A stretch of 64,000 nucleotides of DNA, taken from a virus. The notes below the pieces were generated by a model that was given only the letters and a program-made list of their open reading frames with translations, did not search any database and was not told the DNA's origin. A program made the translations under genes and the position numbers. The stretch covers positions 1-64,000 of the IMG/VR virus record IMGVR_UViG_3300042396_000723, one strand, 5' to 3'. Shown piece by piece: positions 2,878 to 20,687 of the stretch; position 1 is the first letter of the stretch, and every line of letters begins with the position of its first letter.

Positions 2878-5800
2878 ATGTCAAGTTCAAGTCTTAGCGG
2901 AGTCAGTATCACGATCTCGGCAAGTAATCAAGTTTCTCCTGTCCTTAGATCAATTCAAGAGGAGTTGCTTGGGCTGCGCCAACCCCTTCAGGTACTTGAC
3001 TTGTTTCGGAGTTCCTTTGGGGGGATAACGTCATCTATTGTTCAGGCTACGACAACTATCGGCTTCTTTGGGCAGGGGATGTCAACGCTTCGAGGGTTGG
3101 TTTCTAACGGCCCGTTTAAATTGTTGATTGGACAAACAGTCGAATTACATGGGCAGTTGCTATCGGTCGCTTCAACTATGGCGGCAACCTCAAAAATTAT
3201 TAGTAACGGGTTTGAAATTAAAGATCCTACACAAGCGATTCAGGCACTCAACCAACCTATAAACGAACAGATTAGACAGTTAAGAATTGATTCTATTGAT
3301 CTAGTTGGGGTCACGTCTAAGCAGTTGATTCCAGTATTTCAACAGGTGGCACAGGGTGCGACACCGATTGGAGCAACCCTAAGCGACGCAAGGAGTTTAA
3401 CCATTGACTTTGCAGCCGCACTGGGAACTTTACAAGTTCCATTGTTTCAAAGTAGGCAAGAAATTCAATCAATTTTTCTAGGAACAATTGATATGAATTC
3501 TATCCTGGCTAAATCGTTGGGGATAACTAACGTGATGGTTGCCAAGTGGAAGGCTCAGGGAACTTTGGTGCAGGAATTGACCACGCGATTGTCTGCATTT
3601 AGGGCCGGGAACAAATTGGCAGCCCAGAGTTTTTCTGGGGTAACTTCAAACATTCAAGAGATGTTTGAATTGATAGGACAAAGATCGGGGGAAAAACTAT
3701 TAACACCTTTGACTCAATCCCTAAACGAAGTCTACAAGTTTTTACAAACGAACCTTGATATGTTGGTGGGTGAATCGGGGAAGGTTACAGATCAGATCCT
3801 TCGCGCGGGTCTAGCCTTCCAGTCTATTTTTAAAACGGTTCTTGGGGATGTGGTGACGGTCTTTAAGGATGTTCCATTATTCTTGTTTACCTCTCTAGCG
3901 AACGCATTGGAGGCACTGAATCAAGGTCTGGGATTCACGATGGCGGTATTGCGTCCTGCCATTAACCTGTTCGCGGCATTATCAAGTGCGGTAGCTCCCC
4001 TCGCTTCTGGTTTCCTTGTGATTGCCCTTCAGGTAAAAGCCCTCACTGTTGGAGTAGGAATACTTTCTAAGGCTTTTGGGGTATTAGGCGGCATTCTGTT
4101 ACCCGGTGTCGGGCAAATCTTCCCCCTCCTTGTTGCTAACGCAGGTGCTTTAGGCGCTGCTTTTACGGGGCTTGGGGGAGCAACTATCTTCAGTTCTGTA
4201 GGTATGGCTCAATTCTCTGCCAACCTTCAGCGAATACCCGGCGCAATGACGTTAATGGCTTCTGCTACGGCAGCGTTAGGGAATCTTCTCAGGACAGTTG
4301 GCTTGGCGGTTGTCGCATTTGGTGCGTTCAAAATAATTGATGAATTTATCCTCAAAAACAGGGGGTTAATGGAAGTCCTTGGGGGTGTATTTGGGGGGTT
4401 GGGTGAAGTTGTCAATATTTTAATCGGGTCTTGGCAGTCAGCCTTGATCACTTCGACTGTTGTTGTCGGGGGGTTAGCGATCGCATTCCGCGCTCAATTA
4501 ATCCCTGCGGTTTTGTCGTTTATCTCAATTCAATTAGCTGGTGTTGTAACCAGTTCTGCATCTGCATTTGTGTTTCTTGCCGGAGTATTGACTTCTCTTG
4601 GATTTAGTAGTATGGCTATCACGGCCGGAACTGCTGCACTTCATTTACAAATGCTGTCTGCGTCTGCAAGTCTGGGAACATTGACTATGGGAGGGTTGGC
4701 TCTTGCTATTAAAAGTGTAGCCTTATCTGTAGCTACGTTACTCGCTCCTTTGGCTGCTGTAACTGCGGTAGTGGGAGGTGTTGGACTTGTTCTTTATAGT
4801 CAATCCTTAAAGGATTCTACAGAAGCCACACAGGAGTTAGCTAATAGAACTGAAGAATATGGGGATTTAGCTATTGATTCGCTTGAGAAACTGTCTGTGG
4901 CTCAGAAAAAGCAACAGGAGTCAGAGAAATCAGGGATTAGATTGACCGACGAAGAATATAAAAACAATCAAAAACTTCAAAATCAAGCCAAACTCAGGAT
5001 CGGATTAATAGAGGATCAAATAACTGCATTAAAAGAGCAGGAAAAAACAGTTAAGGGTGATGCCAACAAGTCTAACATTCAATCTCAAATAGGTGAGCTA
5101 GAAAAACTAAAAACGGCATTAGCTCAAGCATCTTCTAATGTGGTTATTGCACCAAAAGATTTAATGGTATTGGGGACGGCGTTAGAACAGTTAAAGAAAA
5201 AAGCAAATGAAGCTATGGACGCAATTCTAAAACCATCTGGAGATCAGGAGGTGTTTAAGAAAAAGGCATCCGAGGTTATTGAATTTAACATGGCTTTGTT
5301 AGAAATGGGGCAAACAATTGATAAGGATGTTATTACTAAACTACGTCAGTTAGCTAACGATACAAGGTTAGATCAAGAGGTTCAACGCAAGGCACAGGAA
5401 ACAATTACTAAAGTCATTGAGCAGGAAAGCAAAAAGCGATCCGATACTATTGCAAAACAAAAAGCAGAGGTAGAATCTCAACAAAAAAACGGGGAGATAG
5501 GAGTAAGGAAATCGGAAAAGTTAATAACTGATTTAACTATCAAGGAATTAGAGGAACGGAAATCAGCCCAACAAGAAATCCAGTCCGAGCAACGAGCTTT
5601 TGGAAACATTGAAGCAGCCCGAAAAGCAGGGGAAGAAATCAAGAAAATAGAATCAGATATTACTAAAGCAATTGCAGAGGAACGGTCTAAACGAAACGAG
5701 GAACTGGTTAAAAACTTTCAGGAGCAACAGTCAATTATTGAGGGGTATCTCGCCCAAGGATTAACCACAGAGAAAAACTACAACAACCAAAAATCACAGT

Positions 5801-7926
5801 TACAAATCGAGGGATTGGACGAACAAATTAGGCAGCAGCGAAACAAATTAGGAAAATTAGCAGGGGATGATAAAGAAGGTCGGGAGGCTATTAACGCCGA
5901 GATAGGGAAACTCCAAGTTCAACGGCAAAAAACAATTAAGGACGGTTATGATCAAGAGCTTTCTACCCTTGAAAAACAACTCCAGAAAACCGTTGATTTA
6001 GTCAAAGAGGCTGAATTAATTAGACAAAGTGAAGTTCAGAAGTCGTTTAATGAATTTGGAGGTAATCAGAATTTAATTAACGAGGAAAATGTAAAAAACA
6101 ACCTTAAGACCCTTGAGGCTGAATACAGTAACACGGTTAAAAAATTAAAGGAAACAAAATCTCAACCAGCACTATCAGATCCCCGACTAGAGACTGACAG
6201 ACAAACTAAAATCAGAAAGTTAAGACAAGAACAACTCCAACAATCTTTGGGGATGTTGAAAGTCGAGAAAGAAGCCTGGGATGCTCATACTCAAACCGTT
6301 TTAGGGAATATTGCCAAAGAAAACAATGCCCAACTATTAAGCATAGAAAAGCAGATTAATAGCGGTAACGTACTGAGGGAATTAGAGGGGGCTGCAAGTG
6401 CTACCGATAAAGTTCAGGAGTTGCAAGTTCTACTTAGTCGAGAAAAAGACATTAATAAGCAAGCCGAGTTAAGGTTGTCCCTAGAGAAAGCTATCAGGGA
6501 AGAACGGGAAGCCTGGGGAGCGTTGGGGATTGCCGAAATTGAAGCAATTAACAATCTTGAGTTAATCGCCTTAAAAAATCTGCTAAACCAAGGGAAAATT
6601 CTCAAGGAAGAATACGATCTGAAAATAGCACAGCAAGCCATAGAAACATTACAAAAACGAATTAGTTTAGAGACGGATGTTGGCAAGAAAATCAAGCTCC
6701 AATTACAGCTAGTTGAAGAACAAGGGCGGTTGATTGATGCAAACGTAAGGAGATACGAAGCAGGGTTAAACAAGGAAGCACAAGCCTACGAGAACACCAT
6801 TAAACGCCAGAATAATGAACTAGACAATCAGAGTCGGAAATTCGATATTCTCAATAAAGCCCTTCAGATGCGTTCGGAATTACAGGACGCACAGAAGGGG
6901 GTGTTTGACGCGGCTAGTAGCTTTTACTCAGGGGAATTAGATGCTTTAGTCCAAGGGGAACGCTCCGAACGGAAGAAAAAACAACTTGCAGAATTAATCT
7001 CGGCTATTAAATTAAAATCAGCAATACAGCAAGCTGAATTTGAGAAACAAAGTCTGATATCCCAACAATTAATGAAAACCATCGAGCTTGAACGGGAGAA
7101 AATAGCTGCTAGAAGGGCGCTGAATGATGCGAAAATTGAAAAAAGAAAAGCTGATAATGCTCTTAAAGTAGCAAAAAAAGATCCTAGAACAACTCCAGAA
7201 CAGTTAGAGGAGCTGCAAACAGCGGCAGATATAGCAGGGGAGAACGTTGGCTACCAAGAGCAAAATTTGGGTTTATTACGAAAACAAGAATTTAACCAGT
7301 CAAAGGTTTTTAAACTCCAGAGAGAAGCGTTAGAATTCCGCAGTCAAGGGGCTATTCGTTCGGCACAGGTAGACTTAGCGAACAACACCAGTAACAGATC
7401 ATTGAGACGACAGCGTTTTGCTGATATTACATCCAGTGTGCTTGATAGTTTTGGAGTAGACAGTATAAATGATCTAACGGGTCGAGCCGCGGCGACGGGA
7501 GAACAAGCCCTCAGAGAAAGTGGATTAAGGGGGGGTAGAAGACTTCCAGGGGGATTATCAGCAGAAGAACAGATGCGAAGCCTTAGAGGGGATTCTGGGG
7601 ATTTTTCTGGTGCAACAGGTAGCGCACCTTCTGAAATCTACAAACTAACTGGCGGACTCGGTGGGGGGTCGGCATCATCTCCTCAATTAACAGATCCTCT
7701 CAAACTTCCCTCTGCTTTGTCTCCTGTCCTATCCCCCATCGTCTCCCCAGACTTCTCACGGGCATTGCAGCAAGCTACAGGGAAAGGTCAAACGACAATT
7801 TCTCCAACAATAAATATCCCGATTACCGTAAACGGCGATCAAAAAGTGGGAGAATCAATTAAGAAACAGGTTGAACCAAGGTTAGAAAATGTTATTCAAC
7901 GAATGGTTAATCTCTCCCGTAATTAG
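2878..7926 (+). CDS. tail tape-measure-like protein
   Basis: 1682 aa; N-terminal third is Gly/Ala-rich with multiple hydrophobic segments, remainder is long K/E/Q-rich coiled coil; size and composition typical of a TMP. Confidence 0.6.
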   Translation: MSSSSLSGVSITISASNQVSPVLRSIQEELLGLRQPLQVLDLFRSSFGGITSSIVQATTTIGFFGQGMSTLRGLVSNGPFKLLIGQTVELHGQLLSVASTMAATSKIISNGFEIKDPTQAIQALNQPINEQIRQLRIDSIDLVGVTSKQLIPVFQQVAQGATPIGATLSDARSLTIDFAAALGTLQVPLFQSRQEIQSIFLGTIDMNSILAKSLGITNVMVAKWKAQGTLVQELTTRLSAFRAGNKLAAQSFSGVTSNIQEMFELIGQRSGEKLLTPLTQSLNEVYKFLQTNLDMLVGESGKVTDQILRAGLAFQSIFKTVLGDVVTVFKDVPLFLFTSLANALEALNQGLGFTMAVLRPAINLFAALSSAVAPLASGFLVIALQVKALTVGVGILSKAFGVLGGILLPGVGQIFPLLVANAGALGAAFTGLGGATIFSSVGMAQFSANLQRIPGAMTLMASATAALGNLLRTVGLAVVAFGAFKIIDEFILKNRGLMEVLGGVFGGLGEVVNILIGSWQSALITSTVVVGGLAIAFRAQLIPAVLSFISIQLAGVVTSSASAFVFLAGVLTSLGFSSMAITAGTAALHLQMLSASASLGTLTMGGLALAIKSVALSVATLLAPLAAVTAVVGGVGLVLYSQSLKDSTEATQELANRTEEYGDLAIDSLEKLSVAQKKQQESEKSGIRLTDEEYKNNQKLQNQAKLRIGLIEDQITALKEQEKTVKGDANKSNIQSQIGELEKLKTALAQASSNVVIAPKDLMVLGTALEQLKKKANEAMDAILKPSGDQEVFKKKASEVIEFNMALLEMGQTIDKDVITKLRQLANDTRLDQEVQRKAQETITKVIEQESKKRSDTIAKQKAEVESQQKNGEIGVRKSEKLITDLTIKELEERKSAQQEIQSEQRAFGNIEAARKAGEEIKKIESDITKAIAEERSKRNEELVKNFQEQQSIIEGYLAQGLTTEKNYNNQKSQLQIEGLDEQIRQQRNKLGKLAGDDKEGREAINAEIGKLQVQRQKTIKDGYDQELSTLEKQLQKTVDLVKEAELIRQSEVQKSFNEFGGNQNLINEENVKNNLKTLEAEYSNTVKKLKETKSQPALSDPRLETDRQTKIRKLRQEQLQQSLGMLKVEKEAWDAHTQTVLGNIAKENNAQLLSIEKQINSGNVLRELEGAASATDKVQELQVLLSREKDINKQAELRLSLEKAIREEREAWGALGIAEIEAINNLELIALKNLLNQGKILKEEYDLKIAQQAIETLQKRISLETDVGKKIKLQLQLVEEQGRLIDANVRRYEAGLNKEAQAYENTIKRQNNELDNQSRKFDILNKALQMRSELQDAQKGVFDAASSFYSGELDALVQGERSERKKKQLAELISAIKLKSAIQQAEFEKQSLISQQLMKTIELEREKIAARRALNDAKIEKRKADNALKVAKKDPRTTPEQLEELQTAADIAGENVGYQEQNLGLLRKQEFNQSKVFKLQREALEFRSQGAIRSAQVDLANNTSNRSLRRQRFADITSSVLDSFGVDSINDLTGRAAATGEQALRESGLRGGRRLPGGLSAEEQMRSLRGDSGDFSGATGSAPSEIYKLTGGLGGGSASSPQLTDPLKLPSALSPVLSPIVSPDFSRALQQATGKGQTTISPTINIPITVNGDQKVGESIKKQVEPRLENVIQRMVNLSRN

Positions 7927-7968
7927 TAGAGCCAATGCACAGGCTTGAATAGGTAGTGTTGAATGGTT

Positions 7969-8502
7969 TTAACTGGATTGTGATTGAGACCAATCGACAG
8001 CCGGCTTTATTGCTGCCATATAAAGATAAGGGAATAGTGTTGTCAGGTCTCCCCCTGTAATATTCTTTTTGAGGTGGGTTCTAAGCCATTTTATTATTGG
8101 TAAACCGCCCGATGTACCTAAAACGTAGTTAATAAAAACACTAAATTCACTTTTTAAATTTTCGTCCAATTGATTCATGTATTTGTCAATATCGGGGAGT
8201 AAAACATCCTGTCCGCAACTCAATACTTTAGATGCTAATTTAAAAGATTGAGCTATTTCTCCATTCTTGTTCTCTTGGAGTTGTAAATCCTTGCGTTGAG
8301 AATCAAAAAAACTTCCAGCTTTGATTCGATATCGAAGATAGTCACTCAGAATTTGATCGTCAAATATTGATGATTGCCGATTCTTTAGTATGTCAACTAG
8401 ATCCGTTTTTCCGTAGTTAGGATCTAACGCTTTCCGACGCTTTGCTTCTCCCATGTTTTTATCCCCAAAACTCTCAATAATTATACCGTATTTTGGACAC
8501 AA
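7969..8502 (-). CDS. hypothetical protein
   Basis: 177-aa ORF, ATG start. Confidence 0.5.
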   Translation of the reverse strand: MCPKYGIIIESFGDKNMGEAKRRKALDPNYGKTDLVDILKNRQSSIFDDQILSDYLRYRIKAGSFFDSQRKDLQLQENKNGEIAQSFKLASKVLSCGQDVLLPDIDKYMNQLDENLKSEFSVFINYVLGTSGGLPIIKWLRTHLKKNITGGDLTTLFPYLYMAAIKPAVDWSQSQSS

Positions 8503-8539
8503 CTAAACAATGAAAATGATATAATTAATAATAACAAAA

Positions 8540-8572
8540 CCCCTCGCGGTGCGTGAACACCCAGGGGTAGTA
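8540..8572 (+). promoter_or_regulatory. conserved 5' leader stem-loop motif, copy 1 (second copy at 19106-19141)
   Basis: CCCCTCGCGGTGCGTGAACACCCAGGGGTAGTAAACC about 30 nt upstream of the 8602 start; near-identical architecture upstream of 19162. Confidence 0.35.
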
Positions 8573-8601
8573 AACCAAAACTTCTAAGGAGACGGTTCAC
8601 C

Positions 8602-9138
8602 ATGTCAGATATTGTAAGATCAATCCGTGCAGAATTGAATCTAGGGGATAAAATTATTGATTGCTACCTATTCCCAGATGGAGAGAAACGGATCGGAATA
8701 GGTGGGGCGAGTATTGCTATCGGACGGAATAAAGAGTATTTGAGCAAGTCGGCTAAAAAGGGTACTAAAACGCTCAATGGCTTATGGGATATAGGTTACA
8801 CAGGTCGCCTAGAGGAAACCGAGATAAAAAATGATAGAGGTGCGACACGAAGTAAGACTATCTCAACCAGAGACTTTACAAAAGTAATCACATGGGACGC
8901 TGTAGTAAACAAAAATCAGAGTTCAATTGTCCTGTTAGCTGCTTTTGCTGAAACTGGGTTAGACGTAATTGTAGACAAGTTGTTCGACAATAAATCCGTA
9001 GATTTCCTACTGGAGAAAATTGTCCACTATACGAAATGGACTACAGAAGATCTCCAGGATGCCTTAAATGCCAACTATGACGATTGGAGCGTGATTGTGG
9101 AACAAGAGCAATTTTTGTTAGAGGGAGGGTTGAACTAA
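8602..9138 (+). CDS. hypothetical protein
   Basis: 178-aa ORF; stop overlaps the next start (TAATG). Confidence 0.55.
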   Translation: MSDIVRSIRAELNLGDKIIDCYLFPDGEKRIGIGGASIAIGRNKEYLSKSAKKGTKTLNGLWDIGYTGRLEETEIKNDRGATRSKTISTRDFTKVITWDAVVNKNQSSIVLLAAFAETGLDVIVDKLFDNKSVDFLLEKIVHYTKWTTEDLQDALNANYDDWSVIVEQEQFLLEGGLN

Positions 9139-10680: not shown

Positions 10681-10724
10681 ACTTATAGATGGGTGAACTC
10701 CCCTCTAGGGAGGGGATTTGGGAT

Positions 10725-10991
10725 TTATTTAATTTTCGATTTTAACCATTTGATGATTTCGGTAACTTTCACGTCTTCCGGGAAGGTTTCAGTATCGGTA
10801 AACTCTAAGCCCGTGGGGTCGTACTGGGTAAGTTCGGCTTCTAATTGACCCTCAAAGGTAAGCGTTAAGAACAATTCGCCGTCAGATGGTAAAAAGTCAA
10901 TTTCACTATTTCCAAAGCGATAGAAGAAACCTTCTTCTGTAATCATCTTTTCAGATGCGAATGTCAGGAGCCGTTCTGTTTGGTTATTCAT
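10725..10991 (-). CDS. hypothetical protein (acidic), flanked on both sides by iteron clusters
   Basis: 88-aa ORF. Confidence 0.45.
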   Translation of the reverse strand: MNNQTERLLTFASEKMITEEGFFYRFGNSEIDFLPSDGELFLTLTFEGQLEAELTQYDPTGLEFTDTETFPEDVKVTEIIKWLKSKIK

Positions 10992-11664: not shown

Positions 11665-12507
11665 TTACTCACCGATAATCATTTGGCGATCGCCTTTTTG
11701 ATTTGCCCATAATTCCCGAACCAATTCAACAGATTCAGCCGGAATATAGTCAGTCTGAACCGGACGCATGGCTTTAGAAATTAGATGATCATGTCCGCAA
11801 GATTCTAACCATTTTTCCAACTCCTTGCCAGACTTGAATTTTAATTCCTTGCCAAGTTGAGCTAAGGACTTCCCACGAAATACAGCTAACTGTTTTCCGT
11901 CTTCATTCATAACAACCGACTCGAATTGGGTTTCGGTTTCTCTCACCACCGCTTCGGGGCGACCTTGAATGAGTGCTAACATTCCTGCACCGTGAATGGT
12001 GACGATAGAGGCACTGGATTCTAAAACAAATCGCTGATCTTTCATGGAACTGGCTTGGGCTTCGGCAATTCGGACTTGCAACCGGAGTGCTTCTAATTCA
12101 TCGTGTTGCTGAGGAATGACGGTTTCCGCTTCACGGGTTTTAACAACAAAGTAAGATTGAGCTTGAGCGATTTCCGGTTTGCGGACATCACCATTCATGG
12201 CGATAAGATATGCCGCGTAACGAGACAGCTTATAGTCCTCTTGTCTACTTCCCCCTCCCTGTGGGCGTTTTACCAGATTGTCGGCTCCGGCAAAATGGTT
12301 TTCCGTCAACTCTCCTTGAATTTGACATGACACAATTGCCCGTTGAATCGCATCAGCAAATCTTTTCCATTGTCCATACCCTAATAACCCCATCAACTCC
12401 CGTGCCAACCAATACTCGCAACCTTCACGGTCAATGCGCTTAATGGAATCAAAAGGGGATTTGGATTGATTGTGATCTTGATTGCCAGACAATGCTAAAC
12501 TAGACAT
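11665..12507 (-). CDS. Bro-N domain protein (DinD-like, DNA-damage-inducible/antirepressor family)
   Basis: CEYWLARELMGLLGYGQWKRFADAIQRA matches the Bro-N core; start placed at the internal ATG preceded by AAAGGAGGG rather than the track's 12642. Confidence 0.55.
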   Translation of the reverse strand: MSSLALSGNQDHNQSKSPFDSIKRIDREGCEYWLARELMGLLGYGQWKRFADAIQRAIVSCQIQGELTENHFAGADNLVKRPQGGGSRQEDYKLSRYAAYLIAMNGDVRKPEIAQAQSYFVVKTREAETVIPQQHDELEALRLQVRIAEAQASSMKDQRFVLESSASIVTIHGAGMLALIQGRPEAVVRETETQFESVVMNEDGKQLAVFRGKSLAQLGKELKFKSGKELEKWLESCGHDHLISKAMRPVQTDYIPAESVELVRELWANQKGDRQMIIGE

Positions 12508-19028: not shown

Positions 19029-19105
19029 GAATAATTGAACCTAAATTAATCGGGAGATTGCCAGACTAATTAATATTAATTGTGGTACAATAGTTAATAG
19101 AAATC

Positions 19106-19141
19106 GCCCTTCGCGGTACGTCAAATACCCAAGGGCTGTAA
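19106..19141 (+). promoter_or_regulatory. conserved 5' leader stem-loop motif, copy 2
   Basis: GCCCTTCGCGGTACGTCAAATACCCAAGGGCTGTAAACC about 25 nt upstream of the 19162 start; shares CGCGGTRCGT...ACCCARGGG...TAAACC with copy 1. Confidence 0.35.
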
Positions 19142-19161
19142 ACCTAACTAACAGGATCACA

Positions 19162-19431
19162 ATGAATAACTTTAACAAAGAACTGGCTTTAAGTTTACTC
19201 GGATCTGGTAAAGAATACCCCGTTGATTTTGAAGACGCTTGGCAATGGTTGGGATATTCGAGTAAACAGGCTGCCAAAAAGAAGCTAACCCGCAACTTTG
19301 AACAAGAGGAAGACTATTTATCCGAATGGATGAAAACCCCAGATGGCGGTCGTCCTAGCGAATCCATCTATCTCACCGTCGATTGTTTCAAGGCATTAGG
19401 GATTGATTGTTTTAATGTGTTATACTATTAA
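19162..19431 (+). CDS. antirepressor N-terminal (AntA-like) fragment, candidate exon 1
   Basis: 89 aa; VDFEDAWQWLGYS...SIYLTVDCFKALGI resembles the start of phage antirepressor N-domains and stops where the homing-endonuclease gene begins. Confidence 0.4.
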   Translation: MNNFNKELALSLLGSGKEYPVDFEDAWQWLGYSSKQAAKKKLTRNFEQEEDYLSEWMKTPDGGRPSESIYLTVDCFKALGIDCFNVLYY

Positions 19432-20165
19432 AACAATCACACAACACTTTAACAATAAATGAACATCGAAATATCTTCTGTTACGCCCCATCTAATTGAA
19501 GATTTAGCTAAGACAGGAATTTATTCTATTACACAAAAGAGTACGGGAAGAAAATATATAGGGAGTACATCGGAAAATTTTTACCAAAGATGGAGGCGAC
19601 ATTTAAGCGAACTAAAAAAAGGTAATCACCATAGCCAGTTTTTGCAACGAACCTGGGATAAATATGGCTCCGATGATTTTGTATTTGAGATTATTGAATT
19701 TCACGACGTACTATCTGTTTTAGATAATTTATCTTTATTGAATTTAGAACAGTCTTATTTGGATAAATTAACTCCAGAGTTCAATATTTCACCTTCTGCA
19801 CATAGTAGAAAAGGGGTGAAAGTATCGGAAGAAACCCGCACTAGAATCAAAGAAGCAAGAAAATATCAAGTAATGAAACCCGTTAAAGAAGAAACAAAGA
19901 AAAGAATTTCAGAATCAAATAAAGGAAAACATGAGGCAAGTATTGAAACTAGAAGAAAAATGGCTGAAGCAAAAAGAGGATTACCACTTAGGGCTATAAA
20001 TACTTATGTCTTAACATCTCCACTTGGTGTTGATATCACGGTAAATAACCTAAAAGATTTTTGTCGAGAAAATAATCTGAATTATCAAAACCTTTTTCAT
20101 GTTATAAGAGGGAATAGAAAATCTTCTCAGGGATGGAAAATAGTCAAGATAAATCCCTAGAGATG
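19412..20165 (+). mobile_element. candidate HEG-containing intervening sequence (possible group I intron) in antirepressor gene
   Basis: GIY-YIG ORF lies exactly between the two antirepressor halves; boundaries are inferred from the protein break, not from intron structure. Confidence 0.3.
19459..20160 (+). CDS. GIY-YIG homing endonuclease with NUMOD3-like repeats
   Basis: GIYSIT...KYIGST, RWRRHL, and repeated S-E-x-T/N-K-G-K motifs (VSEETRTRIKEARK / ISESNKGKHEASIETRRKMAEAKRG). Confidence 0.85.
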   Translation: MNIEISSVTPHLIEDLAKTGIYSITQKSTGRKYIGSTSENFYQRWRRHLSELKKGNHHSQFLQRTWDKYGSDDFVFEIIEFHDVLSVLDNLSLLNLEQSYLDKLTPEFNISPSAHSRKGVKVSEETRTRIKEARKYQVMKPVKEETKKRISESNKGKHEASIETRRKMAEAKRGLPLRAINTYVLTSPLGVDITVNNLKDFCRENNLNYQNLFHVIRGNRKSSQGWKIVKINP

Positions 20166-20687
20166 TCAGGGACGGAGCAAGGGAAGAAAACCCGACAATA
20201 TTTCCTGCGGTGCGAGAAGGAGTTGAAAAACACTCATGGAATTAATTTACTAGACAAGCCTTCACCTCAACTGATTAGTGATGCGGTTATGGCAGTTTTC
20301 CGACCCACCAATGTTGACCCAACACTTATCTCAGGGGTCATTGCCAACAACATCGCTAAAACTTATCCGGCGCTAGCTCCTGCGATGGAAGAATCCAAAA
20401 AACATCTGACCGTCGAAGTCGAGGGAAAACTTCTCACGCCCACCGAACTCGGATTAATCTTAGAACAGCGCACTGGTGTTAAACACAGTGGCAGACGAGT
20501 TAATCAATTGTTAGCCGAGAATGGATTGCAAACTCCTAACCCCGCGGGGAAAGATCCGGCTTGGGTTCCAACTCCAGAGGGGAGTGCTTTTTCTAAACTG
20601 TTACTTGCAGCGCAGAAGGGCGTTAAGGATGCGACTAGACAACATTTGCAGTGGTTTGAATCTGTTGTAGATGTTTTGGCGGTTTAG
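20163..20687 (+). CDS. antirepressor C-terminal part (KilAC-like), candidate exon 2
   Basis: EQGKKTRQYFLRCEKEL resembles the conserved R-x-YFI-x-E segment ending antirepressor N-domains; LTPTELGLILEQRTGVKHSGRRVNQLLAENGLQ is KilAC-like. Confidence 0.4.
   Translation: MSGTEQGKKTRQYFLRCEKELKNTHGINLLDKPSPQLISDAVMAVFRPTNVDPTLISGVIANNIAKTYPALAPAMEESKKHLTVEVEGKLLTPTELGLILEQRTGVKHSGRRVNQLLAENGLQTPNPAGKDPAWVPTPEGSAFSKLLLAAQKGVKDATRQHLQWFESVVDVLAV

Follow-up and report, generated by a model that had tools for sequence, protein, structure and literature searches.

A 64,000-nucleotide stretch of viral DNA (positions 1 to 64,000 of the IMG/VR record IMGVR_UViG_3300042396_000723; hereafter the window), a relative of the Planktothrix phage PaV-LD with which about 2 kb can be aligned at 94% identity, carries two copies of a small bulged hairpin immediately upstream of plus-strand genes. 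These copies belong to a widespread phage family that is an unannotated structured RNA motif with unusually clean covariation, and this would stand even if the function offered here were to prove wrong. Based on the strand asymmetry of the surrounding structure and an opposite-strand promoter element in the first codons of the downstream genes, we propose, with some reserve, that the hairpin is probably the terminator stem-loop of a cis-antisense RNA that restrains potentially toxic selfish phage genes.

Anatomy of the two copies in the window

The pattern CGCGGTRCGT-N(2-8)-ACCCA has two matches in the window as against none in 100 dinucleotide shuffles, and a covariance model run over the window with filters off scores site 2 at 61.5 bits and site 1 at 60.4 bits, the next-best match reaching 12.4 bits. 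This confirms the two copies noticed in an earlier sequence-only reading of this DNA. Both copies are intergenic and lie downstream of predicted promoters, with the following components:

8539-8568, minus strand (as the proposed stem-loop 2, SL2): site 1 hairpin, recognized by the covariance model, folds and covariation
19106-19136, minus strand (as the proposed SL2): site 2 hairpin, the second copy, recognized by the covariance model and folds
8517-8525, plus strand: site 1 extended -10 element TGATATAAT of the cassette mRNA, a consensus match with a predicted start at about 8532
19083-19091, plus strand: site 2 extended -10 element TGGTACAAT of the cassette mRNA, read from the sequence and kept in PaV-LD and related contigs
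8602-9138, plus strand: site 1 target gene (178 amino acids; phrog_32599), function not assigned
19162-19431, plus strand: target gene of site 2, comprising the 5' portion of an Ant-like antirepressor gene

The outer stem, which the sequence-only reading gave as 5-6 bp, is real and comprises 6 bp at both sites (ACCCCT/AGGGGT, 8539-8544/8563-8568, at site 1; GCCCTT/AAGGGC, 19106-19111/19131-19136, at site 2), closing with an invariant U-A pair. It is followed on the 5' strand by C-G-C, the G of which pairs with a C of the 3' strand and both C's of which are bulged, and then by an inner helix of 4 bp (GGUR/YACC), in which site 1 has GGUG/CACC and site 2 has GGUA/UACC, a compensatory change. What had been described as a conserved loop is thus conserved in sequence but mostly helical; the true loop is only 6-7 nt long (CGTGAA or CGTCAAA), and the compensation within the inner helix had been overlooked. 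With the hairpin bounds corrected to those given above, the element ends 33 nt before the ATG at 8602 and 25 nt before that at 19162. The tail formerly written TR-TAAACC is likewise found at both sites as (A/T)GTAAACC, and the extended -10 element stands 13-14 nt from the hairpin in both cases. At site 1 the TGATATAAT element is kept in homologous contigs with differing downstream genes.

A widespread family with compensatory variation

When viral, metagenome and genome collections were scanned for the exact pattern and the matches screened for stem pairing and local G+C, at least 120 different hairpin variants emerged from A+T-rich phage-like contigs, and two covariance models turned up additional copies. 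Thus, the further copies and covariation in relatives for which a covariance-model search had been suggested do exist, with strong compensatory changes. In an alignment of 78 variants 98.8% of the cells are paired, both-sided changes occur in 7 of the 11 pairs, and the covariation score is 0.62, as compared to 0.13 in shuffles and at most 0.15 in slid registers; RNAalifold independently gives the same hairpin on either strand. These figures bear out the earlier suggestion of a structured RNA with covarying stems. The constant elements across the family are U-CGC-G...C-C-A and a short tail of the form [U/A][C/G]UA. The loop triplet is unconstrained (C-NNN-AA), and divergent copies swap the inner helix with compensation (GGGA/UCCC, GAGA/UCUC, GAUG/CAUC, GUGG/CCAC) or, in another version, have 5 bp and a GGGG loop.

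A BLAST search of 50,697 GenBank phages with the core retrieved PaV-LD as the sole match, where the motif occupies 72101-72135 of NC_016564, upstream of ORF099R and of the 'anti-repressor' ORF100R. The invariant runs are too short for BLAST. An Rfam scan gave no match in the whole window at the gathering threshold; at a permissive E<=10 both sites, on both strands, returned only chance-level matches (E>=2.8) to Rfam 15, and there was no match on the motif in 20 related loci, so that the earlier impression of a motif resembling no known riboswitch stands. The pattern scans of genomes and metagenomes were also flooded by a G+C-rich coding motif of actinobacteria, which was removed by stem pairing and local G+C: in, for example, L296, L298, L331 and L343 (Actinomycetota; such handles denote individual contigs or loci) the core 20-mer lies inside a coding region, with the reverse strand reading W-V-F-T-H-R-E, and it is a source of false positives in pattern searches for the motif.

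Some contigs carry more than one cassette, i.e., the hairpin with its promoter and gene. L472 has three copies (6905-6951, 7930-7976 and 10719-10766), and sets of 2-3 within a few kb are also present in L138, L151/L160/L161, L148/L156/L280, L422, L435 and L440. Some of these clustered cassettes are 230-520 bp apart, and their hairpins differ, including in fully compensated inner helices.

Downstream genes, carriers and forward promoters

Without exception the motif shares its strand with a downstream open reading frame (ORF), which starts 25-35 nt after it, and the cassette can be in either orientation relative to its neighbours. Among 77 distinct downstream proteins that were scanned, PHROG groups with a homing endonuclease annotation are matched by 39 (PHROG 314) and 22 (PHROG 655), NUMOD3 repeats are present in 21, and other matches are to the GIY-YIG, HNH, HNH_3, HNH_5 and I-TevI DNA-binding domains. 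The remaining proteins include KilA-N, Bro-N, Rha, AntA/anti-repressor, BstA-like and TnpB types. The motif precedes genes of the TnpB/OrfB_IS605 type, with a Cas12f1-like TNB domain, at L179 385-431 and L504 5240-5286, and the association therefore reaches RNA-guided transposon nucleases. L143, where UvsX and gp41 are found in the neighbourhood, is clearly a T4-like carrier. Another T4-like contig, L463, has a freshwater-2 RNA (RF02980; 3657-3731, minus strand; 71.6 bits) about 2.6 kb from its cassette, which suggests a freshwater phage origin.

Two classes of forward promoter are associated with these cassettes. The upstream promoter of myovirus-like contigs has the form (N)ATAAATA, and the gap from its end to the stem is 5 nt in 22 of 35 cases; by the established geometry of T4 late promoters, this spacing would place the transcription start on the first base of the stem. 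In the non-myovirus-like contigs a sigma-70-type -10 element lies 8-17 nt upstream of the hairpin, and the promoters of the window sites are of this type. At least four different genes (L161, L082, L140, L121) are preceded by the same promoter and hairpin, and L121 has a hybrid hairpin (11751-11797) with an ACCCCT-type 5' arm and a GCCTCT-type 3' arm, indicating that the element is also a junction of exchange. Recombinant or decaying hairpins are further seen at L126 1554-1600, with one C·A mismatch, and at L100 7196-7238; both these contigs have a second copy lacking the 3' arm, followed by another -10-like element.

Strand asymmetry of the hairpin and a second stem-loop

The pairing of the hairpin is asymmetric between the strands. 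Among about 390 variable pairs of the outer stem there is no G·U pair in the plus sense, and 9 of 10 single mismatches in the hairpin are A·C or C·A, i.e., G·U when read in the minus sense, none being a plus-sense G·U; RNAalifold, when run on the minus sense, further predicts a tetraloop closed by an invariant U·G pair. The 12 nt that follow the hairpin in 82 cassettes are 56% U in the minus sense versus 33% U in the plus sense. On folding, the minus sense is the more stable in 75 of 77 leaders, and the mean z-score of the segment that separates the hairpin from the AUG is -2.27 in the minus sense versus -0.17 in the plus sense.

The structure in that region is a second stem-loop, SL1, the pairs of which were counted with an anchored script, since its variable loop length makes it unalignable by MAFFT/RNAalifold. 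SL1 has an uninterrupted stem of 8-9 bp in 41 of 75 cassettes, with G·U accounting for 23% of the pairs and occupying the third pair in 61 of 67. At each of levels 4-8 there are 4-6 pair types, and pairing at levels 4-9 is 0.81 as opposed to 0.48±0.02 with shuffled partners. The loop contains the complement of the Shine-Dalgarno sequence (SD), and the conserved GTAAACC tail constitutes the 3' arm; its partner is the stretch that immediately precedes the ATG, and the two can pair in the minus sense only, via G·U. The corresponding features in the window, with structures taken from minimum free energy (MFE) folds, are:

8526-8538, minus strand: site 1 U-tract UUUUGUUAUUAUU, adjoining the hairpin
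8569-8601, minus strand: site 1 SL1, stem GGUGAACCG/UGGUUUACU with G·U pairs, from the MFE fold and covariation across cassettes
19092-19105, minus strand: site 2 U-rich tail GAUUUCUAUUAACU, weaker than that of site 1
19137-19161, minus strand: site 2 SL1 (GUGAU-CCUG ... UAGG-UUUAC), from the minus-sense MFE fold
8611-8616, minus strand: site 1 -10 hexamer TACAAT, the reverse complement of Ile-Val codons (ATTGTA), with a predicted antisense start at about 8604
19169-19177, minus strand: site 2 extended -10 element TGTTAAAGT, the reverse complement of codons 3-6, with a predicted antisense start at about 19162

At site 1 the SL1 loop reads CUCCUU, complementary to the SD AAGGAG at 8586-8591, and the minus-sense MFE fold of SL1, SL2 and tail has an energy of -25.4 kcal/mol (z -2.5); at site 2 SL1 overlaps the complement of the SD AGGA at 19153-19156, and the equivalent fold has -22.8 kcal/mol (z -3.0). 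In terms of terminator features, site 1 combines a 12-bp bulged hairpin with the UUUUGUUAUUAUU tract, and site 2 has GAUUUCUAUU after the stem. A pairing of the site 1 loop (GUGAAC) with GUUCAC before the AUG was dismissed as a coincidence, the loop of L418 being different and its downstream sequence identical.

A candidate promoter element on the opposite strand

Within the first 36 nt of the ORF, the minus strand carries ATAAATA, TGNTANNNT or TANAAT in 66 of the 82 cassettes (80.5%) versus 13.0% of control starts, the controls being 798 ORF starts from the same contigs; restricted to the first 22 nt the figures are 72% and 9.4%. ATAAATA is found on the minus strand in 21 of 33 cassettes of the T4-late class against a 1% background, usually as TATTTAT at +5, and the 49 other cassettes have TGNTANNNT (23) or TANAAT (17). 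The element lies within codons 2-6 and is of the same class as the cassette's own promoter; its fixed offset places the predicted antisense start at -1 to +3 of the AUG. The TACAAT of site 1 recurs at the same offset in the homologues L105 and L418 and in an unrelated KilA-N-like gene of L205. At site 2 the plus strand of 19169-19177 reads ACTTTAACA, and homologues have TGYTAAAAT at the same offset (L124, L138, L148, L165/PaV-LD, L407).

ORFs of the unrelated GIY-YIG, HNH and HNH_3 families all start with M-x-I-Y, the codons being ATG-NNT-ATT-TAT with an invariable T at the wobble position of the second (e.g., L410, L472, L496, L414, L203, L432). Protein N-termini thus appear to be shaped by a nucleotide-level constraint, for which the reverse complement is ATAAATA. 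Two other candidates were rejected. A minus-strand -35 element in the loop (TTGACG) lacks a consistent -10 at the correct spacing, even if a scan did pick TTCACG-N18-TATTAT at site 1. Long-range pairing of a late promoter is a feature of T4 gene e and I-TevI, and an analogous plus-sense pairing of AUAAAUA with codons 3-4 (UAUUUAU) was considered, but the sigma-70-class cassettes have a promoter rather than a complement at that position.

The proposed antisense module

The evidence from the hairpin, tail, U-tract and promoter element is best accommodated if the plus-strand 5' untranslated region (UTR) is the target and the hairpin the 3' stem-loop of an antisense RNA. The sequence-only reading had taken the hairpin for a plus-strand leader or protein-binding site, which was probably the wrong strand given that the pairing of the tail, the G·U pairs, the U-tract and the promoter element all point to the minus one.

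Accordingly organized, a compact module with convergent promoters would accompany each potentially toxic accessory gene. The rightward promoter would produce an mRNA with its 5' UTR starting at the hairpin or a few bases before it, so that in the mRNA, too, these bases would form a hairpin close to the 5' end. A promoter of the same class on the opposite strand, embedded in codons 2-6, would produce a leftward RNA of about 65-80 nt starting from the region of the start codon and fully complementary to the mRNA 5' UTR. In this RNA, SL1, with its G·U-rich stem of 8-9 bp, would display the anti-SD in its loop, and SL2, namely the hairpin, would together with the following U-tract terminate transcription just short of the rightward promoter. 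At site 1 the predicted RNA would start at about 8604 from the TACAAT element (8616-8611), continue through SL1 (8601-8569) and SL2 (8568-8539) and end in UUUUGUUAUUAUU (8538-8526); at site 2 it would start at about 19162 from TGTTAAAGT (19177-19169), followed by SL1 (19161-19137), SL2 (19136-19106) and the tail (19105-19092). We infer that such minus-strand transcription, with termination at the hairpin, would result in translational repression: by pairing with the mRNA leader, the antisense RNA would cover the SD and so keep ribosomes from binding, the duplex would perhaps be exposed to RNase III, and transcriptional interference between the convergent promoters may add to the effect. As a consequence, antirepressor-like proteins and homing endonucleases would be expressed at low levels or late. 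The antisense proposal is also favoured by the nature of the downstream genes, since some restraint would be expected for genes such as those of homing endonucleases, KilA-N, Bro-N, Rha, Ant and TnpB.

Several observations weigh against it. In two variants the apical pair is G·U in the plus sense and would be A·C in the minus sense. The U-tract of site 2 is weak, and a simple terminator scan, which disallowed bulges, called neither site. A minus-strand promoter element could not be recognised in about 20% of the cassettes; the promoters were called by consensus, and convincing -35 elements were not found alongside them. The near-invariant U-CGC-G...C-C-A with its two bulges is not explained by a terminator or antisense role alone. 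Finally, the position of the hairpin is fixed at the predicted mRNA 5' end, as is seen in the 5-nt gap of the T4-late-like promoters (22 of 35), and hence a plus-strand role may coexist with the antisense one.

Alternative explanations

One alternative is that the hairpin is a plus-strand cis-regulatory leader at the mRNA 5' end, acting as a binding site for a trans-acting protein (translational operator or antiterminator) or as a stabiliser against 5'-end-dependent RNases. It is always on the ORF strand, 25-35 nt upstream, and at a fixed distance from the plus-strand promoter, with T4-late-like transcripts predicted to start at the first base of the stem; moreover, the conserved bulges and pair identities resemble a recognition surface, and the two plus-sense G·U pairs are compatible with it. 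Nevertheless, we consider such a leader unlikely: the region from the hairpin to the AUG is at chance in the plus sense and structured in the minus sense, the outer stem has no G·U and yet 9 A·C mismatches are tolerated, the conserved tail and pre-AUG bases are accounted for only by minus-sense pairing, and no candidate binding protein is common to the very different carrier phages. The hairpin could alternatively function as DNA, i.e., as a cassette boundary that provides a homology patch or a single-stranded hairpin for the exchange of accessory genes, comparable to the PeSL elements of T4-type phages, for which such shuffling is documented (PMC2839356, PMC4122927). The joining of one promoter and hairpin to at least four genes, the L121 hybrid, the almost entirely Watson-Crick pairing and the cargo of mobile nucleases would all suit this. 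We nonetheless hold it to be improbable as the primary function, since it leaves the covarying SL1, the strand asymmetry and the minus-strand promoter unexplained and the carriers have no recombinase in common; a role in exchange is more likely a secondary consequence because conserved regulatory patches recombine as an expected by-product.

The small size, high conservation, asymmetric internal loop and proximity to the SD are also what one might see in a small riboswitch aptamer or self-cleaving ribozyme of the 5' UTR. This we regard as very improbable indeed, given the lack of an Rfam match even at E<=10, a cargo of nucleases and DNA-binding proteins rather than metabolic or transport genes, a freely variable loop triplet with divergent copies swapping the inner helix and loop entirely, and no plus-sense expression platform downstream of the hairpin. 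Other resemblances that were considered, namely to tRNA T-arm or anticodon-arm mimics, iron-responsive element (IRE)-like architecture, CRISPR-repeat mimics (from the ...GTAAACC tail), preQ1-I and guanidine riboswitches, integron attC sites and IS200/IS605 ends, were dropped for want of a supporting feature. The near-invariant bulged core is left unexplained by the antisense, plus-strand and exchange explanations alike; it could serve in recognition by a conserved host factor or in cross-talk between competing cassettes during co-infections.

Comparison with known systems

The closest parallel to the proposed antisense RNA is the sar RNA of phage P22, which regulates the antirepressor gene ant (PMC2629481), and whose published sequence opens opposite the ant start codon, its first letters, AUUCAU, being ATGAAT in reverse complement (PMC13397905). 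Like sar, the RNA predicted here would be a cis-antisense transcript of about 70 nt from a convergent promoter, with its 5' end at the start codon of the target. The sar fold comprises an anti-SD stem-loop and then a long 3' stem-loop with a tail; similarly, the minus-sense folds of both window loci, PaV-LD, L484 and L301 have two stem-loops, the first with the anti-SD and the second with a U-containing tail, and at site 2 the target is likewise an antirepressor. However, neither site matches RF00262 at E<=10 on either strand and the MAFFT alignment is poor; in light of this absence of alignable similarity, the element is not a detectable member of the sar family. It further differs in the diagnostic bulged 3' stem-loop (GCG and two bulged G in the minus sense), in having two promoter classes (sigma-70-type and T4-late-type), and in being mostly associated with homing endonuclease genes of lytic phages rather than with an immunity region.

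Hairpins are also known from the endonuclease genes of T4, where they lie on the plus strand, with the late promoter inside them, and sequester the SD of read-through transcripts (PMC2988022). These (I-TevI, I-TevII, I-TevIII, segB and mobE) concern the same class of genes as the present cassettes, some of which have the late promoter TATAAATA directly upstream of the hairpin. In contrast to them, the SD of all members of the present family is outside the hairpin, at a distance of 10-20 nt on its 3' side, and the late promoter precedes the stem by 5 nt (22 of 35), so that late transcripts would hold the whole hairpin. The stable hairpin of seg43(25) in Aeromonas phage 25 is more comparable in standing just upstream of an SD that it does not sequester (PMC2988022), but it is a plain 9-bp stem without a match to the model and was rejected as a family member. 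Dassa et al. (2009) describe RNA hairpins upstream of free-standing GIY-YIG/Vsr-like endonuclease ORFs in T4-like marine metagenomic loci with 'fractured genes', many of them with TATAAATA and with two conserved motifs that pair in the stem; the authors interpreted them as plus-strand translational attenuators and are not reported to have proposed an antisense RNA (PMC2677866). Judged by this description, they may be the same element.

The PeSL cassettes are similar in being modules of a promoter and a stem-loop that flank accessory ORFs at junctions of exchange, with recombinant hybrids comparable to L121, and they differ in that the stem-loop is upstream of the promoter, which is sigma-70-like and early, and terminates transcription of the same strand (PMC2839356, PMC4122927). 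In the present family, the order is promoter followed by hairpin, with no U-tract after the hairpin on the plus strand. Conversely, the PeSL elements have no conserved bulged core, second promoter or antisense RNA.

More generally, in type I toxin-antitoxin systems and plasmid copy control (hok/sok, CopA/CopT) a short cis-antisense RNA restrains the translation of a harmful protein; the stem-loops of these RNAs are bulged, and the bulges of CopA are needed for fast pairing. The cargo here consists of nucleases and DNA-binding proteins rather than membrane toxins, and no addiction phenotype is implied.

The split antirepressor gene and neighbouring genes in the window

The Ant-like gene downstream of site 2 (19162-20687) is split, with codons 1-79 at 19162 to about 19398 and the remainder at about 20163-20687. 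It is interrupted after approximately codon 79 by a GIY-YIG/NUMOD3 endonuclease gene (19459-20160), the 3' end of which overlaps the start of the second Ant-like part. This remainder is 95% identical to residues 82-255 of an uninterrupted homologue of 255 amino acids in L128. Group I intron models have no match in the window; hence, the gene looks like an endonuclease-'fractured' gene rather than one with an intron. For the same reason the hairpin was rejected as an element of a group I intron, both its copies being intergenic and after promoters instead of inside an interrupted gene.

Adjoining site 1, the leftward gene at 7969-8455 (minus strand; likely start ATG 8455) has no obvious promoter of its own in 8456-8516 and could be fed by read-through of the proposed antisense terminator. 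Further upstream, an ORF of 1682 amino acids (2878-7926) has no Pfam match at E<=0.01.

Implications

We tentatively suggest, as a possibility that goes further than the antisense proposal itself, that these cassettes might represent a portable 'governor' independent of promoter class, in which a forward promoter, an antisense RNA gene and a terminator are packed into about 100 bp and move with selfish genes. Under this suggestion it would pass between unrelated phage lineages (T4-like myoviruses, PaV-LD-like cyanophages and prophage-like regions), with both nuclease and antirepressor genes as cargo, and the constraint it imposes might be strong enough to dictate the first 4-6 codons of unrelated proteins (M-x-I-Y, M-S-x-I-V, M-N-N-I-I, x-F-N-K).

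The family would add a widespread, well-covarying RNA to existing catalogues, and the motif would serve annotators as a marker of free-standing endonuclease cassettes. If the antisense proposal is true, it would account for the odd N-terminal conservation that nuclease families share without being related. Few phage genes are as mobile as those of homing endonucleases and antirepressor-like proteins, and how they spare the genomes they invade is known in detail for only a few T4 genes; a single antisense-RNA module, present in more than 100 cassettes and operating with two promoter systems, would then provide a general and directly testable answer.
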